A DNA stretch of 64,000 nt from Candidatus Dadabacteria bacterium (GTDB lineage Bacteria; Desulfobacterota_D; UBA1144; Nemesobacterales; UBA2774), in NCBI GenBank assembly GCA_020849425.1, contig JADLGH010000007.1, positions 2,732-66,731 of the forward strand. The letters run 5' to 3'. The translations under genes were made by a program, and so were the position numbers. Below, one piece after another: positions 6,996 to 41,499 of this stretch; the stretch's first letter is position 1; each line of letters opens with the position of its first letter. The notes beneath the pieces were generated by a model that was not told where the DNA came from, made no database searches, and saw only the letters and a list, made by a program, of their open reading frames with translations.

Positions 6996-7559
6996 TCACC
7001 TTACTGTAAACGATGCTCTCATTACGGCATGCGCCAATCCGCAAAACTCGAGACACAGCACCTTATAAGTTCCCGGCTTTTCGAACTTCCACCTGAGACG
7101 GTTTACGTAACCCGGCATGGCCTGCGTCTGGGCTATAAGGTTGTTGCTTTCATCGTATATGCCAAACCCGTGGTTAACGTCCAGGCTCGTTACCCTGAAC
7201 TCGACCAGCTCGCCTCTTTTCAATTCTATCGCCTCTCCTGCGCCGGGATTTCCGGGTCCTATAGCCTCAGAGGACAGGGCCCAGTAATACTGCTGGGCAG
7301 CAACGAACACAACCCTCGAAGGACTCTCCTTTTCAAACAGGTAATATGGTGATTTCGGAATGGTGAATGAAGCAAAAATAAAGAGGGCTGCGGTCAAAAG
7401 CAAAAAGAACCAGAATCGCTGGGTGTTATTAAGGCCTTTTCCGTCTTCCTTTTGCGAACTTTTTGCACCCGATGAGAGATAGACGTAGACGAATACTATG
7501 GCGACAAGTGCTGCCAGCAGCAAGAATAAGACTAGAATGAATTCATGTTTATCGCTCAT
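6996..7559 (-). CDS. heme-copper oxidase subunit II with CuA centre (cupredoxin)
   Basis: Two N-terminal TM helices followed by a cupredoxin domain. CuA ligand motifs are VNHGFGIYD and CLEFCGLAHAVM (C-x-E-x-C-G-x2-H-x2-M). Confidence 0.8.
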   Translation of the reverse strand: MSDKHEFILVLFLLLAALVAIVFVYVYLSSGAKSSQKEDGKGLNNTQRFWFFLLLTAALFIFASFTIPKSPYYLFEKESPSRVVFVAAQQYYWALSSEAIGPGNPGAGEAIELKRGELVEFRVTSLDVNHGFGIYDESNNLIAQTQAMPGYVNRLRWKFEKPGTYKVLCLEFCGLAHAVMRASFTVR

Positions 7560-7683
7560 ATCACCCCCTCATCCGTCCTCGATCACAGCATTTAAATTTT
7601 TTCTGCGCCCCGGTCGCTCTACAAAAATGCGTTGGATAACTGGATAAAAATGCACTTCCTTGACATCAGCCCTATATCATTTT

Positions 7684-7696
7684 ATGATATTATCAT
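7684..7696. promoter_or_regulatory. perfect 13-bp palindrome ATGATA-T-TATCAT in divergent oxidase/Rrf2 promoter region
   Basis: Read directly from the sequence. It sits in the 184-bp AT-rich intergenic region between the oxidase subunit II start (7559, minus) and the Rrf2 start (7744, plus). Confidence 0.4.
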
Positions 7697-7743
7697 GAGA
7701 ATGTGATAAATGCAATTCTCGGTTTCTACCGGATCGATAGATA

Positions 7744-8193
7744 ATGATTTCTCAAACATCACGTTATGCTTTAAAAGCTTTGGTTTTTCTCGTTCAGAAG
7801 GGTGGGGGGGGTCCCGTCAAAGTAAAGGAAGTCTCAGAAAATTTGGATATCCCCCAAAACTACCTCTCAAAAATATTTCACGTGCTCACCCGAAGCGGCG
7901 TGTTGAAATCGACCACCGGAAAATCAGGGGGGTTTCAGCTGGCGGTCCCGACCGACCGGCTTCTGCTCGCGAAAATTATAGCGCCGTTCGAGTCGTCCGA
8001 ATTCCCCGTCGCATGCATACTCGGTCAAGCCGTATGCTCGGATGAAAATCCGTGCGCGGCCCACAACAAATGGAAGGCAATTTCAGCACTCGTCGGCTCT
8101 TTCTTCGACATGACGACACTCCAGGAGATTCTGGAACGAGAAAATATGCATGACGGATGCGCCGCTGCCGCGACATTATCCGAGGAACAATAA
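7744..8193 (+). CDS. Rrf2-family transcriptional regulator (NsrR/IscR-like, 3-Cys cluster ligands)
   Basis: N-terminal wHTH MISQTSRYALKALVFL. Three-Cys motif CxxxxxxCxxxxxC (CILGQAVCSDENPC), typical of Fe-S-binding Rrf2 regulators. Confidence 0.8.
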   Translation: MISQTSRYALKALVFLVQKGGGGPVKVKEVSENLDIPQNYLSKIFHVLTRSGVLKSTTGKSGGFQLAVPTDRLLLAKIIAPFESSEFPVACILGQAVCSDENPCAAHNKWKAISALVGSFFDMTTLQEILERENMHDGCAAAATLSEEQ

Positions 8194-8247
8194 ACCGGGT
8201 TATATCGCAAGGATTAACAAAACTCATCTATAAGGAGGTAAGACAAA

Positions 8248-8724
8248 ATGGAGCATAATAATTTTCTCGAGGCTTTCAAAGAAGAGCATAAGATAATTTT
8301 TAATAATTTGCTGAGCCTGAAAGACGCGGTGGAACGAAAAGACACCGAGGACGCTGAAAATCTGGTCAGGTTTCTGGATGAGATCATGGGACCTCATTTC
8401 AGGGTCGAGGAGGAAGCTCTCTACCCGATGTTGGCCGAATACTTTGGAGAGGATAGCGTCGAACACCTCCTGGAGGAACATACGATGGCAACCGAGGCAA
8501 TGAATGAATTCAAGCATAACATCGGGAACAAACAATATATGGTCGAGCGTGGAGAAGACACGTTAAAAAAACTTCAAGGATTTTTCCTGCATGTAACGAG
8601 CTGCGACGGGCTCTCCATAATAATCGAAAAGTTCTCAGACCGCCAGAAAAAGAATCTCGACGCACATCTGACGAAGGTCAGGGACGAGGCAATTCCTCTG
8701 ACAGTTTGGAAACAGGGAATATAA
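8248..8724 (+). CDS. hemerythrin-like (HHE cation-binding) domain protein
   Basis: His/Glu motifs HKIIFNNL, HFRVEEEALYP and EHLLEEH. RBS AAGGAGG at 8232. Lower-GC region. Confidence 0.7.
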   Translation: MEHNNFLEAFKEEHKIIFNNLLSLKDAVERKDTEDAENLVRFLDEIMGPHFRVEEEALYPMLAEYFGEDSVEHLLEEHTMATEAMNEFKHNIGNKQYMVERGEDTLKKLQGFFLHVTSCDGLSIIIEKFSDRQKKNLDAHLTKVRDEAIPLTVWKQGI

Positions 8725-8862
8725 CCCGTACTCGACATAAACGAGTAAGGAAATGAATAGTGAGGAATCCTGGATCAGTTGTTCATACGTAAGTACCCGA
8801 TATGACGGGATAGTCACAAATAATTATTATAGAGGTCGAAAGCAATTCGAAGCATAAATGTC

Positions 8863-9240
8863 ATGGAAACACATATAAAACAATTTCTTCTCAATGCAGA
8901 TTCGAAAGCGCTGGCAACGCTGTCTCGCGATGGTGCAATTAACGTCGTCCCTGTATCATCGATAAAAATTATCGAAGACAAGATCGTGCTCGTTAATTAC
9001 TTCATGGAAAAAACATTAGATAATATCCTGAGCAATGATAATATTGCACTGGTCGCATGGTCCGGAATGGCAGGATATCAGGTTAAAGGCAAGGCGGAAT
9101 ACAGGACATCCGGTGATACTTTTGACATGGTGACAAGCTGGATTAGAGAGACTATCCCTGGTCGTGTAGTAAAAGGCGTTCTCATCATAGAATCTGCTGA
9201 AGTTTACAATGTCGCACCCGACAAAAAAAGGCCGGAATAA
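8863..9240 (+). CDS. pyridoxamine 5'-phosphate oxidase-like FMN-binding split-barrel protein
   Basis: LATLSRDGAINVVPVS...IVLVNYF...VKGKAEY pattern of the PNPOx-like family. Length 125 aa. Confidence 0.6.
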   Translation: METHIKQFLLNADSKALATLSRDGAINVVPVSSIKIIEDKIVLVNYFMEKTLDNILSNDNIALVAWSGMAGYQVKGKAEYRTSGDTFDMVTSWIRETIPGRVVKGVLIIESAEVYNVAPDKKRPE

Positions 9241-9673
9241 GATTATCTTCCGCAACATCGCGAGCCGCGAGGTAATGCACTAGACCGAGCCGGTGTCCTG
9301 AACGATATAAGTCCTTATATGTCCCGGTACAGGAAAGTTTTACAGTATGTGACCTAAAGAAGTAAGAGTCATGTCTTCCGGGGGCTTGACACCATTAGAC
9401 AAGAGTATTACTACCGACGCAGAAAGTGTCATGAACTAAAAACCAGGCAATATTCGATTAACGAGCGGATTAAAAGGTATCTAAAGCCGATGGAACTTTC
9501 AAAGTTACTCTTTCCATAGCATCAGGGCTTATGAGCTTTTCGAAAGTTCGAAAATAGAGCAAAAGAGGAAACTGATCAACCATGTATTTTCGAGCCTCGA
9601 ATTAGATGCAACCCTCCGTTATTCTTTGAAAAAACCCTTTGATTTAATGGTAGATTGCCATACTCATAAGGAA

Positions 9674-9747
9674 TGGCTGGGGCACTAGGATTCGAACCTA
9701 GACTGATGGATCCAGAGTCCATAGTACTACCGTTATACTATGCCCCA
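9674..9747 (-). tRNA. tRNA-Gln (anticodon CTG)
   Basis: The reverse complement reads TGGGGCATAGTATAACGGTAGTACTATGGACTCTGGATCCATCAGTCTAGGTTCGAATCCTAGTGCCCCAGCCA. Acceptor stem TGGGGCA/TGCCCCA, anticodon loop CTCTGGA (CTG), T-arm GGTTCGAATCC and 3' CCA. It is closely similar to E. coli tRNA-Gln. Confidence 0.85.
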
Positions 9748-9861
9748 GCGGAAGGCCTTTAGTATTTATAATAACACACATGGAGTCAAGTATCTTGATT
9801 GGCCGCACGCATTCGATACAATAGAGTTACAAAACTTTTTAATCCGGCAAGGAGAAAGGCG

Positions 9862-32170: not shown

Positions 32171-32204
32171 AGGGGGCGCGGTCTTCGCAGCGCCCCCCTT
32201 TTTG
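32171..32204 (+). terminator. rho-independent terminator
   Basis: gggggcgcg / cgcgccccc hairpin followed by ctttttg, 17 nt after the methyltransferase stop. It marks the left edge of the low-GC island. Confidence 0.6.
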
Positions 32205-32220
32205 ATTGACGACAATCGCG

Positions 32221-33687
32221 TTAAGATTTAATACGTGTGGGAAGGTTCTTTAGATTGCCCAAAGCAAAACGGCTGTTGCTGCCCTCTCCACATTCTGAAC
32301 AAGATGGGCCTTTACGTGGTTCATCAAATGACATTTGACGGTATCTTGGAATGAAACGCATATAGCTCCGCTCCGCGTTCTGTTCTGTAAGACCTGTCAT
32401 ATATAACATAAAATCATTGGCTGCTTGTGAAGCAGATATTGCGTTGAGAGTTATTACGCTTGGTGCGTGTACTTCAATATCATTAACGTATCTTTGGGCA
32501 GCAAGCTCTTTTTTCCCTTGCCCTTCTTCCTGAAGCTTGGAGGGATCAATAACCTGATTGCACAAAAGACATCCTGCATCAGGAGTAACTGGTCTCACTA
32601 TACTGAAAATGTCTCCTACTTCACCTGTTTCCCCATCAACCGGCACCTTCGCACCAACCTGGACGCCCGGTATCAGGTATTGATGCACAATCGCATTAAA
32701 TAACAATCTTGCACGCATAGTGTCAGCAGCGAGAAATATATAGTCACAATCAAGAAGTCGATTAGCATTTTCTAAATCCAAAACATTGCCATAAACAGCC
32801 TCTATGAGAGCATTCTTGTTTGCTCTACTTATAATTCTCTTTGCGATAGATACCTTTTTCCTAGCCAGTCTTTTTGCCATATTCCGAATCCAAGACGGCA
32901 TACGTTGATCAGCTAACCAGGTAAGGGCATCAAATCTTGTTGCACCGACAACACGAGGAAGGTTAGAAATTTCTATACGGTCATCATCTATCAGTACGAA
33001 GCGACCAACGCCTAGGTGTCCCAAGTACTCAGCCAGGAGAGAGCCTGCACCACCAAGCCCGATAATTCCAATTTTTGTCTTACGCAATATTTGTTGTCCG
33101 ACATTCCCAAAAAGAAGTGCCTGACGGTCATAGGTCTCATCCCGCAAAAGGCTAGTTCCGACCGGAGCATCTCTTAGCAATCGCCTCCGATGTCCGATAA
33201 TGGTCGCGGACGAGAGTTTTATCCGACTATGATCAGAGAGCCAGATATCTCCTGCTACTGCATTTGTTGCAAACACTAAAGCCCCAACGGGCATTCCACT
33301 GGCTATATCCAACAACGCTGGATATACGCGTTCATGGCTCTGCATGTCTTCATGCGAAAAGGCAACTGAGTCAAAACCGCTATGATTATGTACTGCAAGA
33401 TATACAAGCCTTTTATCCCTGCATTCAAGTATATGATTCTGGATAAAATTAGCCTTGAGCATACGATAACCACGAACGCCCGGAACGTAATCTTGCCCGT
33501 CAATCGCGATATGTAGACTACGCGCCAGCAGTCTTACACGGCCGTCCGTAGTTGAGGCTACACCGGCCTTTATAATAGCACCGTGTTCATCACAATCACC
33601 CGGAAATAAATGAGCGTTCAGCTTCTCGTACATATCCCCCGACAATACCAATTCACAATGCCTTCCCTTTATCTGGAGTTTATCCAT
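32221..33687 (-). CDS. JAB/MPN metalloprotease domain fused to E1-like (ThiF/MoeB/UBA) adenylyltransferase
   Basis: N-terminal JAMM-like motifs are E-x2-G (DEHGAIIKAG) and HNHSGFDSVAFSHED (HxH...S-x2-D). The central Rossmann GIIGLGGAGS plus FVLIDDDRIEISNLPR match an E1 nucleotide-binding core. The C-terminal CxxC...CxxC (CLLC, CSEC) resembles the MoeB-type Zn site. Confidence 0.65.
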   Translation of the reverse strand: MDKLQIKGRHCELVLSGDMYEKLNAHLFPGDCDEHGAIIKAGVASTTDGRVRLLARSLHIAIDGQDYVPGVRGYRMLKANFIQNHILECRDKRLVYLAVHNHSGFDSVAFSHEDMQSHERVYPALLDIASGMPVGALVFATNAVAGDIWLSDHSRIKLSSATIIGHRRRLLRDAPVGTSLLRDETYDRQALLFGNVGQQILRKTKIGIIGLGGAGSLLAEYLGHLGVGRFVLIDDDRIEISNLPRVVGATRFDALTWLADQRMPSWIRNMAKRLARKKVSIAKRIISRANKNALIEAVYGNVLDLENANRLLDCDYIFLAADTMRARLLFNAIVHQYLIPGVQVGAKVPVDGETGEVGDIFSIVRPVTPDAGCLLCNQVIDPSKLQEEGQGKKELAAQRYVNDIEVHAPSVITLNAISASQAANDFMLYMTGLTEQNAERSYMRFIPRYRQMSFDEPRKGPSCSECGEGSNSRFALGNLKNLPTRIKS

Positions 33688-34094
33688 TCTATCACCTTGA
33701 GAAGTTTAATTTGAGGTGTTTCGAGATTCGACGAGTTATCTCTTCTATTTGATTTTCTTGAAATTTGAACGGCTGTGCGGCGTTCTCTTTGAGGAATATG
33801 TTTAGCATTTGCAGGTGGATATACATGCCCTTTTGAAAAGGCTTCTCCCAGTTCCTTTGAATCCTTACGAGAAAGATCGTCCCTTACAAAATGGGGATAA
33901 ACATCCGCATAGGGACAGGTATGCGTTATATGAAAACCAATCCATGTTTCACTCTGATTGTAAGTCGATGACAAAGTTATACTTTCGATAATAACAAACG
34001 CCCCGCCTTGCGCATCGGAGAAATAACGCAGGTTATTCTCTCCGTAATGTTCTTTTAACTCTTTAATTGCAGATTCGACGTCAGGGGTTAGCAT
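33669..34094 (-). CDS. hypothetical protein, possibly E2-like (small alpha/beta protein with conserved Cys)
   Basis: 141 aa with a candidate catalytic Cys in FHITHTCPYADVYPHF. It overlaps the downstream JAB-E1 gene by 19 nt, consistent with translational coupling. The E2 assignment comes from operon context and is uncertain. Confidence 0.35.
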   Translation of the reverse strand: MLTPDVESAIKELKEHYGENNLRYFSDAQGGAFVIIESITLSSTYNQSETWIGFHITHTCPYADVYPHFVRDDLSRKDSKELGEAFSKGHVYPPANAKHIPQRERRTAVQISRKSNRRDNSSNLETPQIKLLKVIEWINSR

Positions 34095-34106
34095 GACACA
34101 TCCTCT

Positions 34107-34793
34107 TTATGAATTATCATCATTTGCAATGGCAATAAATTTTTGACCGCGCTGAACCTTAACCATCTCACTATCGGCGACGATCTTAGTCCTCCCGGGA
34201 CCCAGCTCCACAGACAGAATAAAATCCAGTTGTATATTTACACCTTGGTCTATGGCAGCCTGTTTAATATCCAACCCTGTATGTTCATAACCGATCACAA
34301 TAATAGGCTTCTCATTTATAAAGATTTTCACTCTTGAGTCTTGCCTCTGTATTACAAAAAATCTTTCCAAAGAATTCGGGGAAAGATCTACCGTTTCTGC
34401 ATTATTTATAAGGCGGTCCTCATCCTGCCCACGCGCTTCAAGCCAAACCTCATATTCTTCCGGGTCAACTCTTGCAAGTTTCTTAAGCTGCAGGCCAGAT
34501 ATAAGATTGGCTCCCCATGGAAACGAACGCCCGTCTAAGACAAAACGAAAGATGCGATCTGTCTTAAACGTCAGAAATTCCATAATACCGGCCTTACAAA
34601 TATCGATGATTTCATCAAGCCCGATTACTTCTAATAGTCCGTTGTCCAAGAACGTAAGAACTACATGCTCTTCAACCGGACGCTTTCCAGCCTTATCTAG
34701 AAGTTGTCTTCCCAGTGGTTTGGGATCCTCGATTAAAAACCTTTCTCCATCAATTAACACCACATACTCTTTTTCGCCTAGACTTAGATTCAT
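34107..34793 (-). CDS. protein with three tandem beta-grasp (ubiquitin-like) repeats (multi-ubiquitin-like)
   Basis: Three internal repeats of ~70 aa, each with hxhxIDG/NEK ... G(L)D/Q ... pattern (KEYVVLIDGERF..., FRFVLDGRSF..., VKIFINEKPIIV...). First gene of a 3-gene minus-strand operon. No C-terminal GG. Confidence 0.5.
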   Translation of the reverse strand: MNLSLGEKEYVVLIDGERFLIEDPKPLGRQLLDKAGKRPVEEHVVLTFLDNGLLEVIGLDEIIDICKAGIMEFLTFKTDRIFRFVLDGRSFPWGANLISGLQLKKLARVDPEEYEVWLEARGQDEDRLINNAETVDLSPNSLERFFVIQRQDSRVKIFINEKPIIVIGYEHTGLDIKQAAIDQGVNIQLDFILSVELGPGRTKIVADSEMVKVQRGQKFIAIANDDNS

Positions 34794-34945
34794 TTTTACC
34801 TCCGAACCTTTAGATTTTTTTATTCGGCTATCAGCGAGCCCGTAACTACACCTTAAACTTCGCCAAATCAGATGTCAAGTGTTGCACGCCTAAAATAATG
34901 TATAGCATAACAATACATCATCTTTAAAATTTTGGGCGTTTTAGG

Positions 34946-34975
34946 TTGACAGAAGAATTTATCCTGTATTATTAT
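34946..34975 (+). promoter_or_regulatory. sigma-70-type promoter TTGACA-N17/18-TATTAT giving leaderless/short-leader transcript for the HTH gene
   Basis: TTGACA at 34946-34951 and TATTAT at 34970-34975, with the ATG of the HTH gene at 34982. Confidence 0.5.
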
Positions 34976-34981
34976 AGAGTT

Positions 34982-35341
34982 ATGAATGAAAGCTCAATTT
35001 ACGAGAAAATAGGCGCACTTATTAAGAAAAATCGCGTTAATCGTAATATGACTCAAAGCGATTTAGCAAAGAGAGTTGGGCTTTCAAGAGGTTCCATAGC
35101 AAATATAGAAAATGGTTCTCAGCGTATCCTCGTACATCAACTCTATATCTTCTCAAAGTATCTAGAAATTAAAACTGAAGATTTATTGCCAGAACATTTA
35201 GAAGAAAATATTGAGAACATAAAGAAAATTCAGATAGAAGTGCGAGGATCGCAAGATAATACTGTGCACAAGCAAACAAATGACAAATTGTTATCTTGGA
35301 TAAGCGAAATGATGGGAAAGGCCACACATGACCGAACCTAA
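34982..35341 (+). CDS. XRE-family HTH transcriptional regulator (Cro/CI-type; CapH-like)
   Basis: HTH_3 domain LIKKNRVNRNMTQSDLAKRVGLSRGSIANIENGSQ. It overlaps the downstream ImmA-like gene by 14 nt. Start ATG 34982; the ORF track start at 34946 is the -35 hexamer. Confidence 0.75.
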   Translation: MNESSIYEKIGALIKKNRVNRNMTQSDLAKRVGLSRGSIANIENGSQRILVHQLYIFSKYLEIKTEDLLPEHLEENIENIKKIQIEVRGSQDNTVHKQTNDKLLSWISEMMGKATHDRT

Positions 35342-35879
35342 ATCATACGCAGTCAGCATACTTCAAAAATTTAAAATTAATTTTGTCCCTGTTCCCGTTG
35401 AAGATATAGCAAAAGGGCTTGGTGCTAAAGTTGTATTCTCAGCTCTTGAAGATAGTCATTGTGGAATGATTCATATGCAAGGTAACATCATCGTGATAGG
35501 AGTCAATTCAATACATCCCAAAAATCGACAAAGGTTTACTATTGCACATGAAATTGGCCACCTCGTTATGCATAAGGACGAAATTAGTGAAAGTATTCAT
35601 ATAGATCAAGCCTTTGGTGAAAGATTAAACCGAGATGGAAGATCCTCTTTAGGAGAAGATTTAAAAGAAGTACAGGCTAACAGATTTGCGGCTGAGCTTT
35701 TGATGCCAACCAGTATCTTAAAAAGGGAAACTAAGAATCAGCGTATTGATATTGAAGATAGTGAATTTATTGAAAAGCTGGCTCAAAAATTTCAGGTAAG
35801 TTTTCAGTCCATGTCTATTAAATTACTCGATACTTTTTATAAAAACTATTCATTATCAACTTCTAAGTTGCATCCTTAA
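35328..35879 (+). CDS. ImmA/IrrE-family zinc metallopeptidase (HEXXH; CapP-like)
   Basis: HEIGH motif (FTIAHEIGHLVMH). The N-terminus is typical of DUF955/ImmA. Paired with the XRE HTH. Confidence 0.8.
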   Translation: MTEPKSYAVSILQKFKINFVPVPVEDIAKGLGAKVVFSALEDSHCGMIHMQGNIIVIGVNSIHPKNRQRFTIAHEIGHLVMHKDEISESIHIDQAFGERLNRDGRSSLGEDLKEVQANRFAAELLMPTSILKRETKNQRIDIEDSEFIEKLAQKFQVSFQSMSIKLLDTFYKNYSLSTSKLHP

Positions 35880-35967
35880 TTCGGATGTTAACATTATTAT
35901 CATTCTTTCCCCCAACAACCATTATATTATGTTTCTCCTCTATTCTTATACTTCGCTGATATGGCCC

Positions 35968-36975
35968 TCACCTCTCCGTTCTGATATGCCGGCGTACGGC
36001 ATAGTACTTTCTTATAAGCCGCTTGACGATACCCATCGTCAGCCCGGACGGGTTCACTACGGCCGACTTGTATATTCCGGTCTCCAGCTCACTCAGCTTG
36101 TAGCGCCTGAGTCCTCGTGAAGACGGCTCTCCGGCCGCCGATATTCCCTTCAGCGTCTCGGCGAATACCCCTTCGTCGGACGCCATATCGCCCTTGTCAG
36201 AGATCATGATGTTGTCCTTGCCTGTCTTTAAATATTTTCTCGCCCCGCCGATCGGAGCCAGCAGGTGCCATACGATCGCCTCGGTCGTGATCATCATCGT
36301 GTAACCCCGGGCGTAGAGCCTTGCGCAAAGGTCGCTCTCTTCCCTGAACGCCACATCCGAATATCCGGGGACCGCCCATCCCCCCGCGTCTTCTATGGCG
36401 CTTCGTCTGTAGAGTATCGCCCCGCCGCCCAGCGATTCGGCCTCTAGTATTTCTGGAAGGTTGTACTAGAAATGACCCTGGAGTCTCCAGTCGGGCCTGT
36501 CGAATCTGGGGATCCATTCGGGATCGCCGAGGGCGACGTCCAGGTCGAGCGGGCCGCTGCCGGGCTCGGGGTGGAGCCCCCCGACGGCTGCGAGCGGCTC
36601 GGACGGAAAGAACCTGAACGGCTTCAGCATGTTCTCGAGGAACGAGGGCTCCGGGAACATGTCGTCGTCTATCCGGAGTACGAGCTCTATGCCTTCGGGG
36701 ACGGCCTCCATTGCGCCCTGGTGCCTTTCCGCTCCCTTGTCCGTGCGTATCATCCGGACGTCGTGTCCCGTCCTTTGCGCGAGGGCGAGCAAGTCCCTCA
36801 CGGCGTGATCCCTGCCTACGGGCGCATCGCTCTGGTCGTTTATCACCAGCATCCAGTTCGTATACGTCTGGCCCAATATGCAGGATATAACGATAGAGAG
36901 GTACGAGGGCCTGTTCCTCGTCGGGACGGCTACGGCTATCTTTTCATCGCTGCGAAGCGGCTTCAGGTCTATCAC
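35968..36975 (-). pseudogene. family 2 glycosyltransferase interrupted by an in-frame TAG at 36466-36468
   Basis: N-terminal ORF 36466..36975 (VAVPTRNRPSYLSIVISCILGQTY...DDD) and C-terminal ORF 35968..36354 (FREESDLCARLYARGY) share one frame, joined by ...DWRLQGHF*YNLPEILEAESLGGGAILYRRSAIEDAGGW.... Confidence 0.7.
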
Positions 36976-38508: not shown

Positions 38509-40032
38509 ATGATTTCCAAAATCCTTTCAAGCGCGGTACTTGGGGTTGACGCATACATTGTCGAAGTCGAAGTCGATCTCGCGTTCGGCGTCCCGCAATT
38601 CAACACGGTAGGGCTGCCGGAGGGAGCAGTCAAGGAAAGCAAGGAGCGCGTAAGGGCGGCGATAAAGAACTGCGGATACGAGTTCCCGGCGAGGAGGATC
38701 ACCGTAAACCTCGCCCCGGCCGATATAAGAAAGGAGGGCTCTGCGTTCGATCTTCCGATATCGCTCGGGATACTCTCCGCGACCGGCCTCGTAGAGCAGG
38801 ACCTCCTTCAGGACTACGTCGTACTCGGCGAGCTCTCTCTCGACGGAAAAGTGAAGCCGGTGAGGGGGGCGCTTCCGAGCTCCATACGCGCGCGTGACAA
38901 CAGGCTCAAGGGAATAATCCTCCCCAGGGAAAACGCCGAGGAGGCCGCGGTCGTCGACGGAATAGAAGTCCTCGCCGTCGAAACGCTTCAGGAGACAGTC
39001 GAATTCCTCTCCGGAAAAAGGGTTATCGAGCCAACCGTAATCGACGTCGATTCCTTATTCACCGCGGCCAGGAGCTACGACATCGACTTTCACGAAGTGA
39101 AGGGGCAGGAGCACGTAAAGCGCGCCCTCGAAGTCGCGGCGAGCGGGGGGCATAACGTCCTCATGATCGGCTCCCCCGGCTCGGGCAAGACCATGCTGGC
39201 AAGGAGGCTTCCGACGATCCTCCCCGACATGAGCTTCGACGAGGCGCTCGAAACGACGAAAATTTACTCCGTTTCCGGACTCCTTCCCGACCACTCGTCC
39301 TTATTCGCGACGAGGCCTTTCAGGCCCCCTCACCATACGATAAGCGACGCCGGGCTCATAGGGGGCGGTGCGGTTCCGAAGCCCGGTGAGGTGAGCCTGG
39401 CGCATAACGGTGTGCTGTTTTTGGACGAGCTTCCCGAATTCAGGAAGAACGTGCTCGAGGTTTTGAGACAGCCGCTCGAAGACGGCGTCGTCACCATATC
39501 GAGGGCCATAACCTCGATAACATATCCCGCGCGCATGATGCTGGTGGCTGCAATGAACCCGTGTCCGTGCGGCTATCACGGCGACCCTCTCAAGGAATGC
39601 AGCTGCACCCCCATGCAAATACACAGGTACAGGGCGAAGGTGTCAGGGCCTCTTCTCGACAGGATAGACATACACATCGAAGTCCCGCCTGTAAGGTACA
39701 GGGAGCTTACGGAGGACACGAGGGGGGAAACCTCGGCCGATATAAAAAGCCGCGTCAACGCCGCGAGAGAGATACAAAGGGCGCGTTTTAAGAGATCTAG
39801 AATCCATTCGAATTCCCAGATGTCGCCCTCGATGGTGAGGAAATATTCGAAGCCGGACGACAAGGGAGCGAGCCTCCTTCAGGCCGCTATAGACAGGCTC
39901 GGGCTAAGCGCCCGCGCGTACGACAGGATACTCAAGGTCTCCCGCACGATTGCCGACCTCGACAGGTCTGAAAACGTCCTCGCCCATCACATATCCGAAG
40001 CAATACAATACCGCTCGCTCGACAGGGGCTGA
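38509..40032 (+). CDS. comM: YifB/ComM-family Mg-chelatase-like AAA+ ATPase
   Basis: N-terminal Lon-protease-like domain ([19 protein letters not shown]), Walker A GSPGSGKT and a C-terminal ChlI-like domain. A TATAAT at 38491-38496 lies only ~13 nt before the ATG. Confidence 0.9.
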
Positions 40033-40322
40033 GCCGGGATAACATGCCCACGGCAGCAGCACCGTTTGTATCTTTCAATTCGAGCGACAATCCCTCTAAA
40101 ACGCACGGGACAAGAGCAACTGAAAAAAACCGCCCTCTAATGCCATTTCCCATCAAGAATTTTTCAGGCTGGTACTATTTATTTTTTATCATATTTATTG
40201 CTATTACACGTATCGAATAAGTACTACATTATATTAAATAAAACAATCAGATACTGGCAAAGCTAATAACTACCAGCTAATATCCACTCTCAGGCAATCA
40301 CTTCTTATTATTGAATTTTTTC

Positions 40323-40370
40323 TTGACAGGATTCTCACACCTTATTATTATGAATATGATTTTGAATATC
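40323..40370 (+). promoter_or_regulatory. sigma-70 promoter (TTGACA-N17-TATTAT) overlapped by a Fur-box-like element
   Basis: TTGACA at 40323-40328 and TATTAT at 40346-40351. GAATATGATTTTGAATATC at 40352-40370 matches 13/19 to the Fur box GATAATGATAATCATTATC, with two GAATAT direct repeats. The local region is AT-rich. Confidence 0.45.
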
Positions 40371-40416
40371 AAGCCAATGTGATGGGCATTGTTGCTTGAA
40401 TAAAGGAGGAATTACA

Positions 40417-41499
40417 ATGTACACAAGAGTAAAAGTCTTGACTTTGATTCTTTCGATTTCATTTCTATTCATGGCGGCTTGCGATGGAGGCAGTTCGAGC
40501 TCGGACGGACCAGGTCCAGGCCCCGATCCCAATGAGCAGCTTATTCAGAACATACTCGACGACTACGTCGACGGAGTTGTCGTAGGAACCTACGGATTGC
40601 TCCAGGAAAGGGCGACTGTGCTCAGGGAGGCGTGCGAAACCCTTGAAGCCGACAGGACGCAGCAAAACCTGGACGCCGCCAAGGCGGCCTGGATATCGGC
40701 CCGAATTCCGTGGGAGCAGAGCGAGGCGTGGCTTTTCGGACCCGTGGACTTCAGGGGTCACGACCCGGCGCTCGACAGCTGGCCGGTCAACAGAACGGAC
40801 CTCGACGCTGTCCTCGCGAGCGGTAATGCACTTACCCCGGAATTCATCAGGAACCTCGACCCGACCCTCAAGGGATTCCACACAGCCGAATACCTTCTTT
40901 TCGCCTTCTCGATCGACCAGCTCGGCGACAGGGAGTTCGAATACCTGATAGCCGTCGTCACGGACATCGAGATCACGGCCACGGAGCTTCTTAACGACTG
41001 GACCGCGGGGCCCGATCCCTTCGGCGACGTCATGAAGACGGCCGGAAGCAATACGGTCTTCCCGTCGCAGGTGAGCGCACTCGAGCAGATAATAGAAGGC
41101 ATGTCCATCATTCTGGACGAGGTCGCCAACGGAAAAATAGCCGAGCCCTTTGACAACCAGGACGTCGAAGCCGTCGAAAGCCAGTTCAGCTTCAATTCGA
41201 GGGCAGACTTCGCGGACGACATAAGGGGAGTTCTCTACTCATACACCGGCGACCAGCCGCTTCTCGGTATTAACGGCACGGGAATCGACGAGCTCGTTGC
41301 CGAGACTGATCCCGATCTCGCAGCGAGGGTGGAAAACGAGATAAACGATGCTATAGGTGCGATACTCGCGATTCCGCAGCCTTTCCGCGATGCGATCCTC
41401 GATCCAAATGCGGCCGACGATATAGTAGCGGCGCAGGAAGCCTGCGTAAGAGTATTCAACACCCTTAACGGTGAAGTATTACCTGTTATAAGACAGTAA
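40417..41499 (+). CDS. imelysin-like (peptidase M75 / IrpA-family) lipoprotein
   Basis: RBS AAAGGAGG. Lipoprotein signal LILSISFLFMAAC. GxHxxE motif (GFHTAEYLLF). Length ~360 aa. Confidence 0.7.
   Translation: MYTRVKVLTLILSISFLFMAACDGGSSSSDGPGPGPDPNEQLIQNILDDYVDGVVVGTYGLLQERATVLREACETLEADRTQQNLDAAKAAWISARIPWEQSEAWLFGPVDFRGHDPALDSWPVNRTDLDAVLASGNALTPEFIRNLDPTLKGFHTAEYLLFAFSIDQLGDREFEYLIAVVTDIEITATELLNDWTAGPDPFGDVMKTAGSNTVFPSQVSALEQIIEGMSIILDEVANGKIAEPFDNQDVEAVESQFSFNSRADFADDIRGVLYSYTGDQPLLGINGTGIDELVAETDPDLAARVENEINDAIGAILAIPQPFRDAILDPNAADDIVAAQEACVRVFNTLNGEVLPVIRQ

Follow-up and report, generated by a model that had tools for sequence, protein, structure and literature searches.

Bub pathways, formerly named 6E/DUF6527 (Ye, Gong, Chambers, Corbett; 10.1101/2024.11.21.623953), have been described in two types. 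Type I operons encode BubAB, a fusion of a ubiquitin-like protein (Ubl) with an E2 (conjugating) enzyme that is sometimes split, together with BubCD, in which a JAB peptidase is fused to an E1 (activating) enzyme, and BubE, the DUF6527 protein; Type II operons encode BubA, the E2-E1 fusion BubBD, and BubE (10.1101/2024.11.21.623953). The Ubl travels through a cysteine-free relay, in which Tyr370 of the E1 crossover loop and Ser333 of the E2 carry it as oxyesters, and the conjugates are removed by the Ser-His protease BubE (10.1101/2024.11.21.623953). The '6e' gene neighborhood reported by Iyer, Burroughs, and Aravind in 2006 (PMC1779556) consists of a polyUbl, an 'inactive' E2/RWD-like ubiquitin-conjugating (UBC) domain, a JAB-E1 fusion, and a metal-binding protein. 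Here, we examine a 3.7-kb island (positions 32206 to 35950) of a 64,000-nucleotide stretch, hereafter the window, of contig JADLGH010000007.1 from a Candidatus Dadabacteria metagenome-assembled genome (MAG), in which a Bub-type operon without BubE is found next to a CapH/CapP-like gene pair.

The island comprises five genes, namely, a minus-strand operon for the Ubl, the E2, and the JAB-E1 protein and a divergent plus-strand CapH/CapP pair, and we consider it probable that it represents a self-contained, horizontally acquired cassette of two modules, a CapH/CapP switch and a three-gene Bub-type conjugation pathway. Its guanine-plus-cytosine (GC) content is 0.405, compared to 0.563 in the remainder of the window, and is the minimum among all the 3.7-kb stretches of the window, in agreement with the initial annotation of this DNA, which had pointed out a low-GC island. 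The GC content at third codon positions (GC3) ranges from 0.26 to 0.38 in the island genes and from 0.67 to 0.81 in the flanking genes. These values argue for a foreign origin of the island, so that the earlier proposal of a horizontally acquired Ubl-E2-JAB-E1 module, for which GC and codon usage had been suggested as a check, is sustained by the composition as well as by the Multi_ubiq and ThiF matches and the likeness to BubCD described below. The tightly coupled three-gene operon was also present as annotated, but the two plus-strand genes, coding for a helix-turn-helix (HTH) protein and an M78 peptidase, had been overlooked.

The last gene of the operon is bubCD-like (32221 to 33687, minus strand) and encodes a 488-amino-acid (aa) JAB-E1 fusion, assigned from a Pfam ThiF match (E 3.9e-29), a PDB sequence match, and an AlphaFold2 (AF2) model searched with Foldseek. 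The N-terminal JAB/JAMM peptidase (about aa 10 to 175, about 33163 to 33660, minus strand) was recognized by the residues E34, H100, H102, S111, and D114, and the C-terminal E1 adenylation domain (about aa 183 to 488) by G210-x-G212-G213-x-G215, N242, R245, and D322. A tyrosine, Y400 (codon 32488 to 32490), occupies the crossover loop, and four cysteines, C373, C376, C463, and C466, form the CxxC...CxxC pattern of MoeB and ThiF, corresponding to a putative structural Zn site. All 73 JAB-E1 homologues considered retain E34, H100, H102, S111, D114, N242, D322, Y400, and the four cysteines, and the glycines of the Rossmann loop are equally invariant over the 73 sequences, in line with the GxGxxG and CxxC..CxxC motifs of a JAB-E1 fusion read from the letters at the outset.

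The closest described protein is BubCD. In particular, the best PDB sequence match is the Citrobacter BubCD (E 1.1e-27, aa 12 to 429), and the alignment pairs the JAB Glu, HxH, and Asp, the adenylation Arg, and the crossover-loop Tyr; Tyr400 falls on Tyr370 of Citrobacter BubCD and on the corresponding Tyr of the R. phaseoli Type I E1. Furthermore, the AF2 model, with a predicted local distance difference test score (pLDDT) of 85.5, retrieved BubCD chains as all of its top eight Foldseek matches (E about 3e-33, template modeling score 0.71 to 0.81), and the next matches, MccB, UBA5, and ThiF, followed 19 orders of magnitude behind, at about 1e-14, and covered the E1 half only. The model has low confidence at the crossover loop (aa 394 to 408), which is consistent with this loop being mobile.

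The first gene of the operon (34107 to 34793, minus strand), bubA-like and preceded by a GGAGG ribosome-binding site, encodes a 228-aa Ubl with three tandem beta-grasp domains. Pfam Multi_ubiq (PF14452) matches the protein in three stretches (E 3.1e-40), which corroborates the three repeats already suspected from the letters, and the best PDB sequence matches are BubA of E. coli ZDHYS365 (9cd2, E 2.4e-26) and BilA of M. brachiatum (8u38, E 5.6e-23). The third beta-grasp domain taken alone matched no PDB chain by sequence, and a profile of the DDNS-ended domain was not particularly close to the C-terminal domain of Type II. Mapping on the PDB sequence alignment placed D79 and E143 at the conserved Ca2+-site residues described for Ubl3 proteins, which form Ca2+-dependent dimers and filaments (10.1101/2024.11.21.623966); since the Ubl keeps these residues, its availability may also be gated by assembly.

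The Ubl ends in ...IANDDNS-COOH, with the DDNS codons at 34110 to 34121. Exactly the same C-terminal DDNS was found in 73 of the 74 distinct Ubls encoded as separate proteins in species-representative genomes, which belong to Alpha- and Gammaproteobacteria, Acidobacteriota, Chloroflexota, Actinomycetota, Cyanobacteria, Nitrospirota, Deinococcota, Binatia, and others, and where relatives have the Ubl and the E2 fused, DDNS is located at the fusion junction. The idea that a C-terminal Ser is unprecedented was rejected, as the natural E. coli Type II BubA, ending in ...TQTDKS, forms conjugates in vitro (10.1101/2024.11.21.623953). The lack of a C-terminal Gly-Gly, mentioned in the initial annotation, is thus real, but the processing by JAB, named there as one of two ways out, is not needed, the mature end being encoded and a Ser-ended BubA being active in conjugation.

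At 34095 to 34109, the bubA-like gene and the E2 gene share one reading frame and are divided by a TAA and four codons only. This arrangement raised the idea of a BubAB fusion split by a nonsense mutation, which we rejected because a good AGAGGA site precedes the second open reading frame (ORF) and 73 of 74 relatives have separate, DDNS-ended genes. Rather, the common frame and the occurrence of DDNS at the junction of the fused proteins suggest that very small changes would suffice to turn the split form into the fused one, or the reverse.

The middle gene (33669 to 34094, minus strand) is bubB-like and encodes a 141-aa E2 with a UBC fold and no catalytic Cys. Its AGAGGA ribosome-binding site lies in the 12-nucleotide spacer between the bubA TAA and the E2 ATG, and its 3' end overlaps the bubCD-like gene by 19 nucleotides, as annotated from the beginning, with an identical overlap in homologous loci (e.g., L001). 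By sequence, the protein had no match in Pfam, NCBIfam, PADLOC, or the PDB (phmmer), nor did a 104-sequence profile match the PDB, and Pfam Prok-E2_E weakly touched 36 of the 104 homologues. The Pfam and PADLOC searches, which had been put forward as a check on the locus, thus returned Multi_ubiq, ThiF, capH, and capP but nothing for this protein. The structure model (pLDDT 92) has a UBC fold and is closest to BubB; the identification as E2, which upholds the early guess about the middle gene, therefore came through structure prediction only, since the sequence searches failed.

Cys60 is the sole cysteine of the E2, and most homologues carry Tyr or Ser at this position, so that the 'conserved-looking' Cys of the initial annotation is indeed single but is not conserved (C, Y, or S). 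The invariant motifs are instead PYADVYPHF, which includes H68, and Q-I-S112-R113-[RK]-S-N, with the Ser112 codon at 33759 to 33761. A weak profile alignment (E 0.11) sets Ser112 against the active-site Ser (WSRH) of a Type I BubB. From these comparisons, Ser112 of the E2 and Tyr400 of the E1 are the likely catalytic residues. We also considered the 141-aa protein as a diverged BubE and rejected the idea, given its UBC fold, its one Cys, and the lack of a C4 site.

Compared to the characterized pathways, the family of the window combines a Type I architecture with tail and active-site features similar to those of Type II and is devoid of the gene used to catalogue Bub operons. With Type I Bub, represented by Citrobacter sp. 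RHBSTW-00271 and by the split operon of R. phaseoli pRphaR620c, it shares the JAB-E1 domain order, the JAB and adenylation residues, the crossover-loop Tyr, an E2 modeled as a UBC fold, with an invariant Ser and no catalytic Cys, a Multi_ubiq Ubl comprising between one and three beta-grasp domains, the frequent company of CapH and CapP, and the location in mobile or defense regions. Different from Type I, however, the window system lacks the DUF6527/BubE serine protease, Type I E1s are only about 22 to 28% identical to the window E1, the Type I E2 context is W-S-R-H instead of S-R-[KR]-S-N, with the window E2 undetectable by sequence, and the Type I Ubl ends in Gly (...VNNG in Citrobacter, after JAB cleavage from EEPR, and ...TTEG, directly encoded, in R. 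phaseoli) instead of DDNS-COOH. The four-Cys putative Zn site occurs in the window E1 and in R. phaseoli but not in Citrobacter BubCD.

With Type II Bub, represented by BubA, BubBD, and BubE of E. coli ZDHYS365, the window system has in common a stand-alone Ubl that has three beta-grasp domains and a C-terminal Ser (...TDKS versus ...DDNS) and a basic residue two positions past the E2 Ser (S-N-K versus S-R-K/R), and the Type II BubA is the best overall sequence match of the window Ubl (E 2e-26 to 2e-27). On the other hand, the Type II E2 context is H-W-F-S-N-K compared to S-R-[KR] in the window family, the E1 similarity is weak (E 3e-7), and Type II operons encode an E2-E1 fusion and BubE without JAB, whereas the window has a free E2, a JAB-E1 fusion, and no BubE. 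The three core genes of the '6e' neighborhood (polyUbl, inactive E2/UBC, and JAB-E1) are all found in the window, and its fourth, metal-binding protein (C-x3-C...H-x2-C, now DUF6527) is missing.

The family is widespread. Searching 1.84 billion proteins with a profile of the E2 gave 301 clusters (50% identity), and homologues of the E1 number in the thousands, the top 120 being all at least 56% identical. One exact-motif scan retrieved 74 loci in species-representative genomes of more than 10 phyla, with the order Ubl, E2, JAB-E1 in essentially all of them. BubE/DUF6527 was searched for by tblastn and a hidden Markov model built on three BubE sequences in all frames of the whole 64-kb window and in 86 related loci, fetched with about 6 to 8 kb of flank requested per side, and was found in none of them, while the positive control from R. 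phaseoli (L087) was detected; moreover, no fetched relative context carries a DUF6527 annotation. The 544 operons of the published Bub catalogue were collected with the DUF6527 gene as seed (10.1101/2024.11.21.623953, Table S1), a procedure that would not pick up a branch without that gene. No PADLOC model covers the Ubl or the E2 of the family, and in the two members whose annotation was checked, only 'ThiF family' and 'hypothetical protein' were given. The family is thus a widespread Bub branch absent from the published catalogue.

The second module of the island lies upstream of the Ubl operon and is divergent from it. The capH-like gene (34946 to 35341, plus strand) encodes an XRE-type HTH repressor (Pfam HTH_3, E 6.1e-12; PADLOC capH, E 2.4e-9), whose start is more likely ATG 34982 (119 aa) than TTG 34946 (131 aa), and it overlaps by 14 nucleotides the capP-like gene (35328 to 35879, plus strand), which encodes a 183-aa zinc metallopeptidase of the ImmA/IrrE (M78) type with the motif HEIGH (Pfam Peptidase_M78, E 6.4e-25; PADLOC capP, E 4.6e-34). 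The divergent orientation, the HTH and M78/IrrE-like metallopeptidase, the overlap, and the position upstream of the operon are as in the CapH and CapP pairs of cyclic oligonucleotide-based antiphage signaling systems (CBASS) and other immune operons, and CapH with CapP accompanies 31% of Bub operons (Ye et al., 10.1101/2024.11.21.623953). Different from those pairs, the CapP-like peptidase is short, about 185 to 195 aa in many relatives, and aligns with the first 152 of the 242 positions of the PADLOC capP model only; the window protein matches positions 4 to 152, the C-terminal third being missing.

Consensus scans and a repeat search were applied to the divergent control region (34794 to 34981, no strand assigned). 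A sigma-70-like promoter for capH (TTGACA-18-TATTAT, 34946 to 34975, 11 of 12 matching positions) would give a leaderless transcript starting at ATG 34982, and a weaker promoter faces the opposite direction at 34997 to 34968; promoter-like sites in the region are not enriched over shuffled sequences. Beside the capH promoter-like element, an imperfect palindrome (34892 to 34924) is a candidate CapH operator.

On these grounds, it is possible to propose how the cassette could work. CapH would repress the divergent Ubl operon until DNA damage or phage-induced stress activates CapP, which, by analogy with characterized CapH and CapP pairs, would cleave CapH and de-repress the operon. The E1 domain, as a dimer, would then adenylate the C-terminal carboxylate of Ser228, the last residue of the DDNS tail, and take the Ubl onto Tyr400 as an oxyester; the Ubl would pass to Ser112 of the E2, and, no E3 being encoded, the E2 would transfer it directly to target lysines. 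[quoted passage not shown] Since the Ubl is made with a mature end, the family has no DUF6527/BubE, and JAB is fully conserved, the JAB domain is most likely a deconjugating or proof-reading peptidase in place of BubE and would act as a maturase only in the relatives with a fused Ubl-E2. The pathway probably serves in defense, against phage or against DNA-damage stress.

Several points weigh against this scheme. BubE is absent, although it has been described as present in all Bub operons. The alignment equating Ser112 with the catalytic Ser is the weak one mentioned above, the active-site context of the E2, S-R-K/R, is neither that of Type I (S-x-H plus Asp) nor that of Type II (H..S-x-K), and the window E2 and the Citrobacter BubB are not detectable as relatives by sequence. 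Since the C-terminal third of the capP model is missing from the window protein, the activation signal or sensor part of this short CapP may differ from that of canonical CapP. The Citrobacter JAB did not visibly reverse conjugation (10.1101/2024.11.21.623953), which makes the role of JAB as deconjugase an extrapolation. Finally, the initial annotation described Bub as proven to be anti-phage, which is not correct, as the authors report no Bub operon protecting against phage so far (10.1101/2024.11.21.623953; PMC13373217, 2026, same group). We found no homologue in phage genomes and IMG/VR viral contigs, a result that speaks neither for nor against a defense role.

With the biochemistry unchanged, the role could lie in a general DNA-damage or stress response or in the maintenance of plasmids or mobile elements instead of anti-phage immunity, which we regard as possible although doubtful. 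CapH and CapP respond to DNA damage, and members of the family reside on large rhizobial plasmids. Moreover, with no phage protection shown for Bub, the authors themselves raise a stress-response role (PMC13373217; 10.1101/2024.11.21.623966), and the Ca2+-dependent filaments of the Ubl3 proteins (10.1101/2024.11.21.623966) fit such a role as well. An immune function is favored by the relatives found beside AbiE, BREX, a Cap2/JAB pair, and a DNA methylase, and by the fact that CapH/CapP, CapW, and CapK/CapS are typical of immune operons (10.1101/2024.11.21.623953; PMC13373217).

It is unlikely that the window carries an ordinary Type I Bub operon, rather than a distinct variant, whose bubE was recently lost or lies elsewhere in the genome. 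About 31 of the catalogued Type I operons (Table S1), including that of R. phaseoli, do have the JAB-E1 fusion with a split Ubl/E2 layout, and the host genome was inspected over 64 kb only. However, DUF6527 occurs in none of the 86 related loci, with the control L087 detected, whereas the classical Type I operon of R. phaseoli carries it. Furthermore, the identity of plasmid-borne E1s to the window E1 is clearly bimodal, with ten records of the same three-gene layout at 41 to 55% and classical Type I E1s at about 26 to 28%, so that the window E1, about 26% identical to Type I, sits with its own family; R. ruizarguesonis p4 has the same three-gene layout, with the E2 annotated as 'hypothetical'. 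The DDNS tail as opposed to ...TTEG or ...NNG and the E2 motif SR[RK]SN as opposed to WSRH point in the same direction.

The DDNS-COOH tail may instead mark a conjugation chemistry or a target class unlike those of Gly-terminated Ubls, hence a mechanistically distinct third type in which JAB replaces BubE as the only reversing enzyme, a hypothesis to which we assign a quite low probability. Activation could in this case depend on the Asn-Ser end through a succinimide-type reaction, and the acceptor of the Ubl could be a residue other than lysine or no protein at all. The E1-like enzyme MccB performs succinimide-type chemistry on a C-terminal Asn.

The Bub-type assignment set out above also has to be weighed against a Bil-type thioester system with Cys60 of the 141-aa protein as the catalytic residue. 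The Bil (BilABCD, bacterial ISG15-like) systems share the logic of Ubl, E2, JAB, and E1, the Type II BilA shares the Multi_ubiq domains (8u38, matched by the window Ubl at E 5.6e-23), and the 141-aa protein does have one Cys. However, Bil relies on thioesters formed with Cys, on an E1 of two domains whose Cys domain is mobile (IAD-AAD-CYS), and on a JAB encoded by its own gene, none of which are found in the window, where the E1 is single-domain, BubCD-like, and fused to JAB, the fold of the E2 is closest to BubB, and Cys60 gives way to Tyr or Ser in most homologues. This very improbable alternative is effectively refuted, and, since the E1 consists of one adenylation domain, with no Cys domain attached, and no Cys is conserved in the E2, the operon is Bub-type (Aravind's '6e') and not Bil-type; of the two options named in the initial annotation, the first to be listed thus falls and the other stands. 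As for MoeB/ThiF-type sulfur-carrier activation for cofactor or thio-compound biosynthesis, which was to have undone the conjugation reading and which has on its side the subthreshold NCBIfam ThiF/MoeB similarities and the MoeB/ThiF-like CxxC...CxxC zinc motif, it is extremely improbable and effectively refuted by NCBIfam scores far under the cutoffs (best 64 bits versus 159 to 339), a Ser-ended partner with three Multi_ubiq domains in place of a GG-terminated ThiS or MoaD, the presence of E2 and JAB domains, and the lack of ThiS/MoaD-type context and of adjacent thiamine, molybdopterin, or cysteine synthesis genes.

The gene neighborhoods allowed us to distinguish subclades within the family. 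In 41 of the 86 loci, the group to which the window belongs, an M78 (CapP-like) gene lies upstream and nothing accompanies the operon downstream; 36 loci have an HTH gene only and a protein of about 511 to 548 aa downstream, 9 have neither, and none have both. This protein, of about 526 aa, is encoded 3' of JAB-E1, for example, at L060:8796-10403 (minus strand), L006:10433-11968, and L010:4017-5663. It had no Pfam or PDB sequence match, with faint Pfam hints only, and was tested, and rejected, as a candidate DUF6527 protein. To judge from its invariant residues, Q170-D171, A176-C177-A178, W183, H281-A282, and H310-D311-D312, it could be a Cys peptidase of the papain/C39 type, and it may serve the sister subclade as a fourth component.

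Other neighbors of the relatives include AbiEi/AbiEii, PglZ/BrxC of bacteriophage exclusion (BREX) systems, a TIR-SEFIR protein, a Cap2-like E2-E1 with JAB, integrases, an actinomycete integrative element, and a DNA methylase. In Bradyrhizobium macuxiense BR 10303 (L060:11538-13762, minus strand), the operon adjoins a Cap2-like E2-E1 fusion (575-aa ORF, HVERDGKLCLG) and a JAB gene, so that two different ubiquitin-like systems lie side by side. The closest relative of the window cassette is found on a metagenome contig from ENA (L089:621-4302), with 79% identity in the E1 and 64% in the Ubl; there, the M78 gene is split into pieces of 96 and 53 aa, no E2 gene was called in the 420-nucleotide gap between the Ubl and the E1, and the cassette may be a decaying copy.

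At the left border of the island, where GC falls from 0.57-0.64 to 0.44, a G+C-rich hairpin followed by a T-run (32172 to 32203, no strand assigned; about -24 kcal/mol in a ViennaRNA fold with short flanks) is located 18 nucleotides past the bubCD-like stop codon, between the operon end and a convergent methyltransferase gene on the plus strand. In agreement with the terminator annotated there, it is the terminator of the methyltransferase gene and the left edge of the island. On the right, the glycosyltransferase gene (35968 to 36975, minus strand; family 2) runs in one frame to its own stop at 35968 and is interrupted by a single in-frame TAG at 36466 to 36468, about 500 nucleotides into the gene. 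The gene described as disrupted at this border does have an internal stop codon but has not been truncated by the island; the TAG could reflect a pseudogene, an assembly error, or read-through and is unrelated to the insertion. Att-like direct repeats, an integrase, and a tRNA were sought at the island borders, and nothing convincing was found.

Elsewhere in the window, a second low-GC stretch (7500 to 9750, GC 0.43 to 0.47), which adjoins a tRNA-Gln (9674 to 9747), may likewise have been acquired; its products are a regulator of the Rrf2 type and two proteins resembling hemerythrin and pyridoxamine-phosphate oxidase, respectively. At 40000 to 40500, directly past a ComM/YifB-like gene (38509 to 40032), GC briefly drops to 0.38.

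To our knowledge, Bub pathways are the only ubiquitin-like cascades that proceed entirely through oxyester intermediates on Tyr and Ser. For the host, a Candidatus Dadabacteria MAG, a label also borne by proteins that are 99 to 100% identical, the locus is a small acquired accessory island, and for specialists in bacterial ubiquitin-like systems, it is a useful minimal model rather than a new category. If the branch is functional, BubE would be dispensable and JAB could be the sole peptidase, and the chemistry could be dissected in a minimal system of three proteins whose Ubl already has its mature end, while the mutually exclusive partners, CapP or the protein of about 526 aa with its invariant Cys, His, and Asp, would provide two handles on how the pathway is switched on or reversed.

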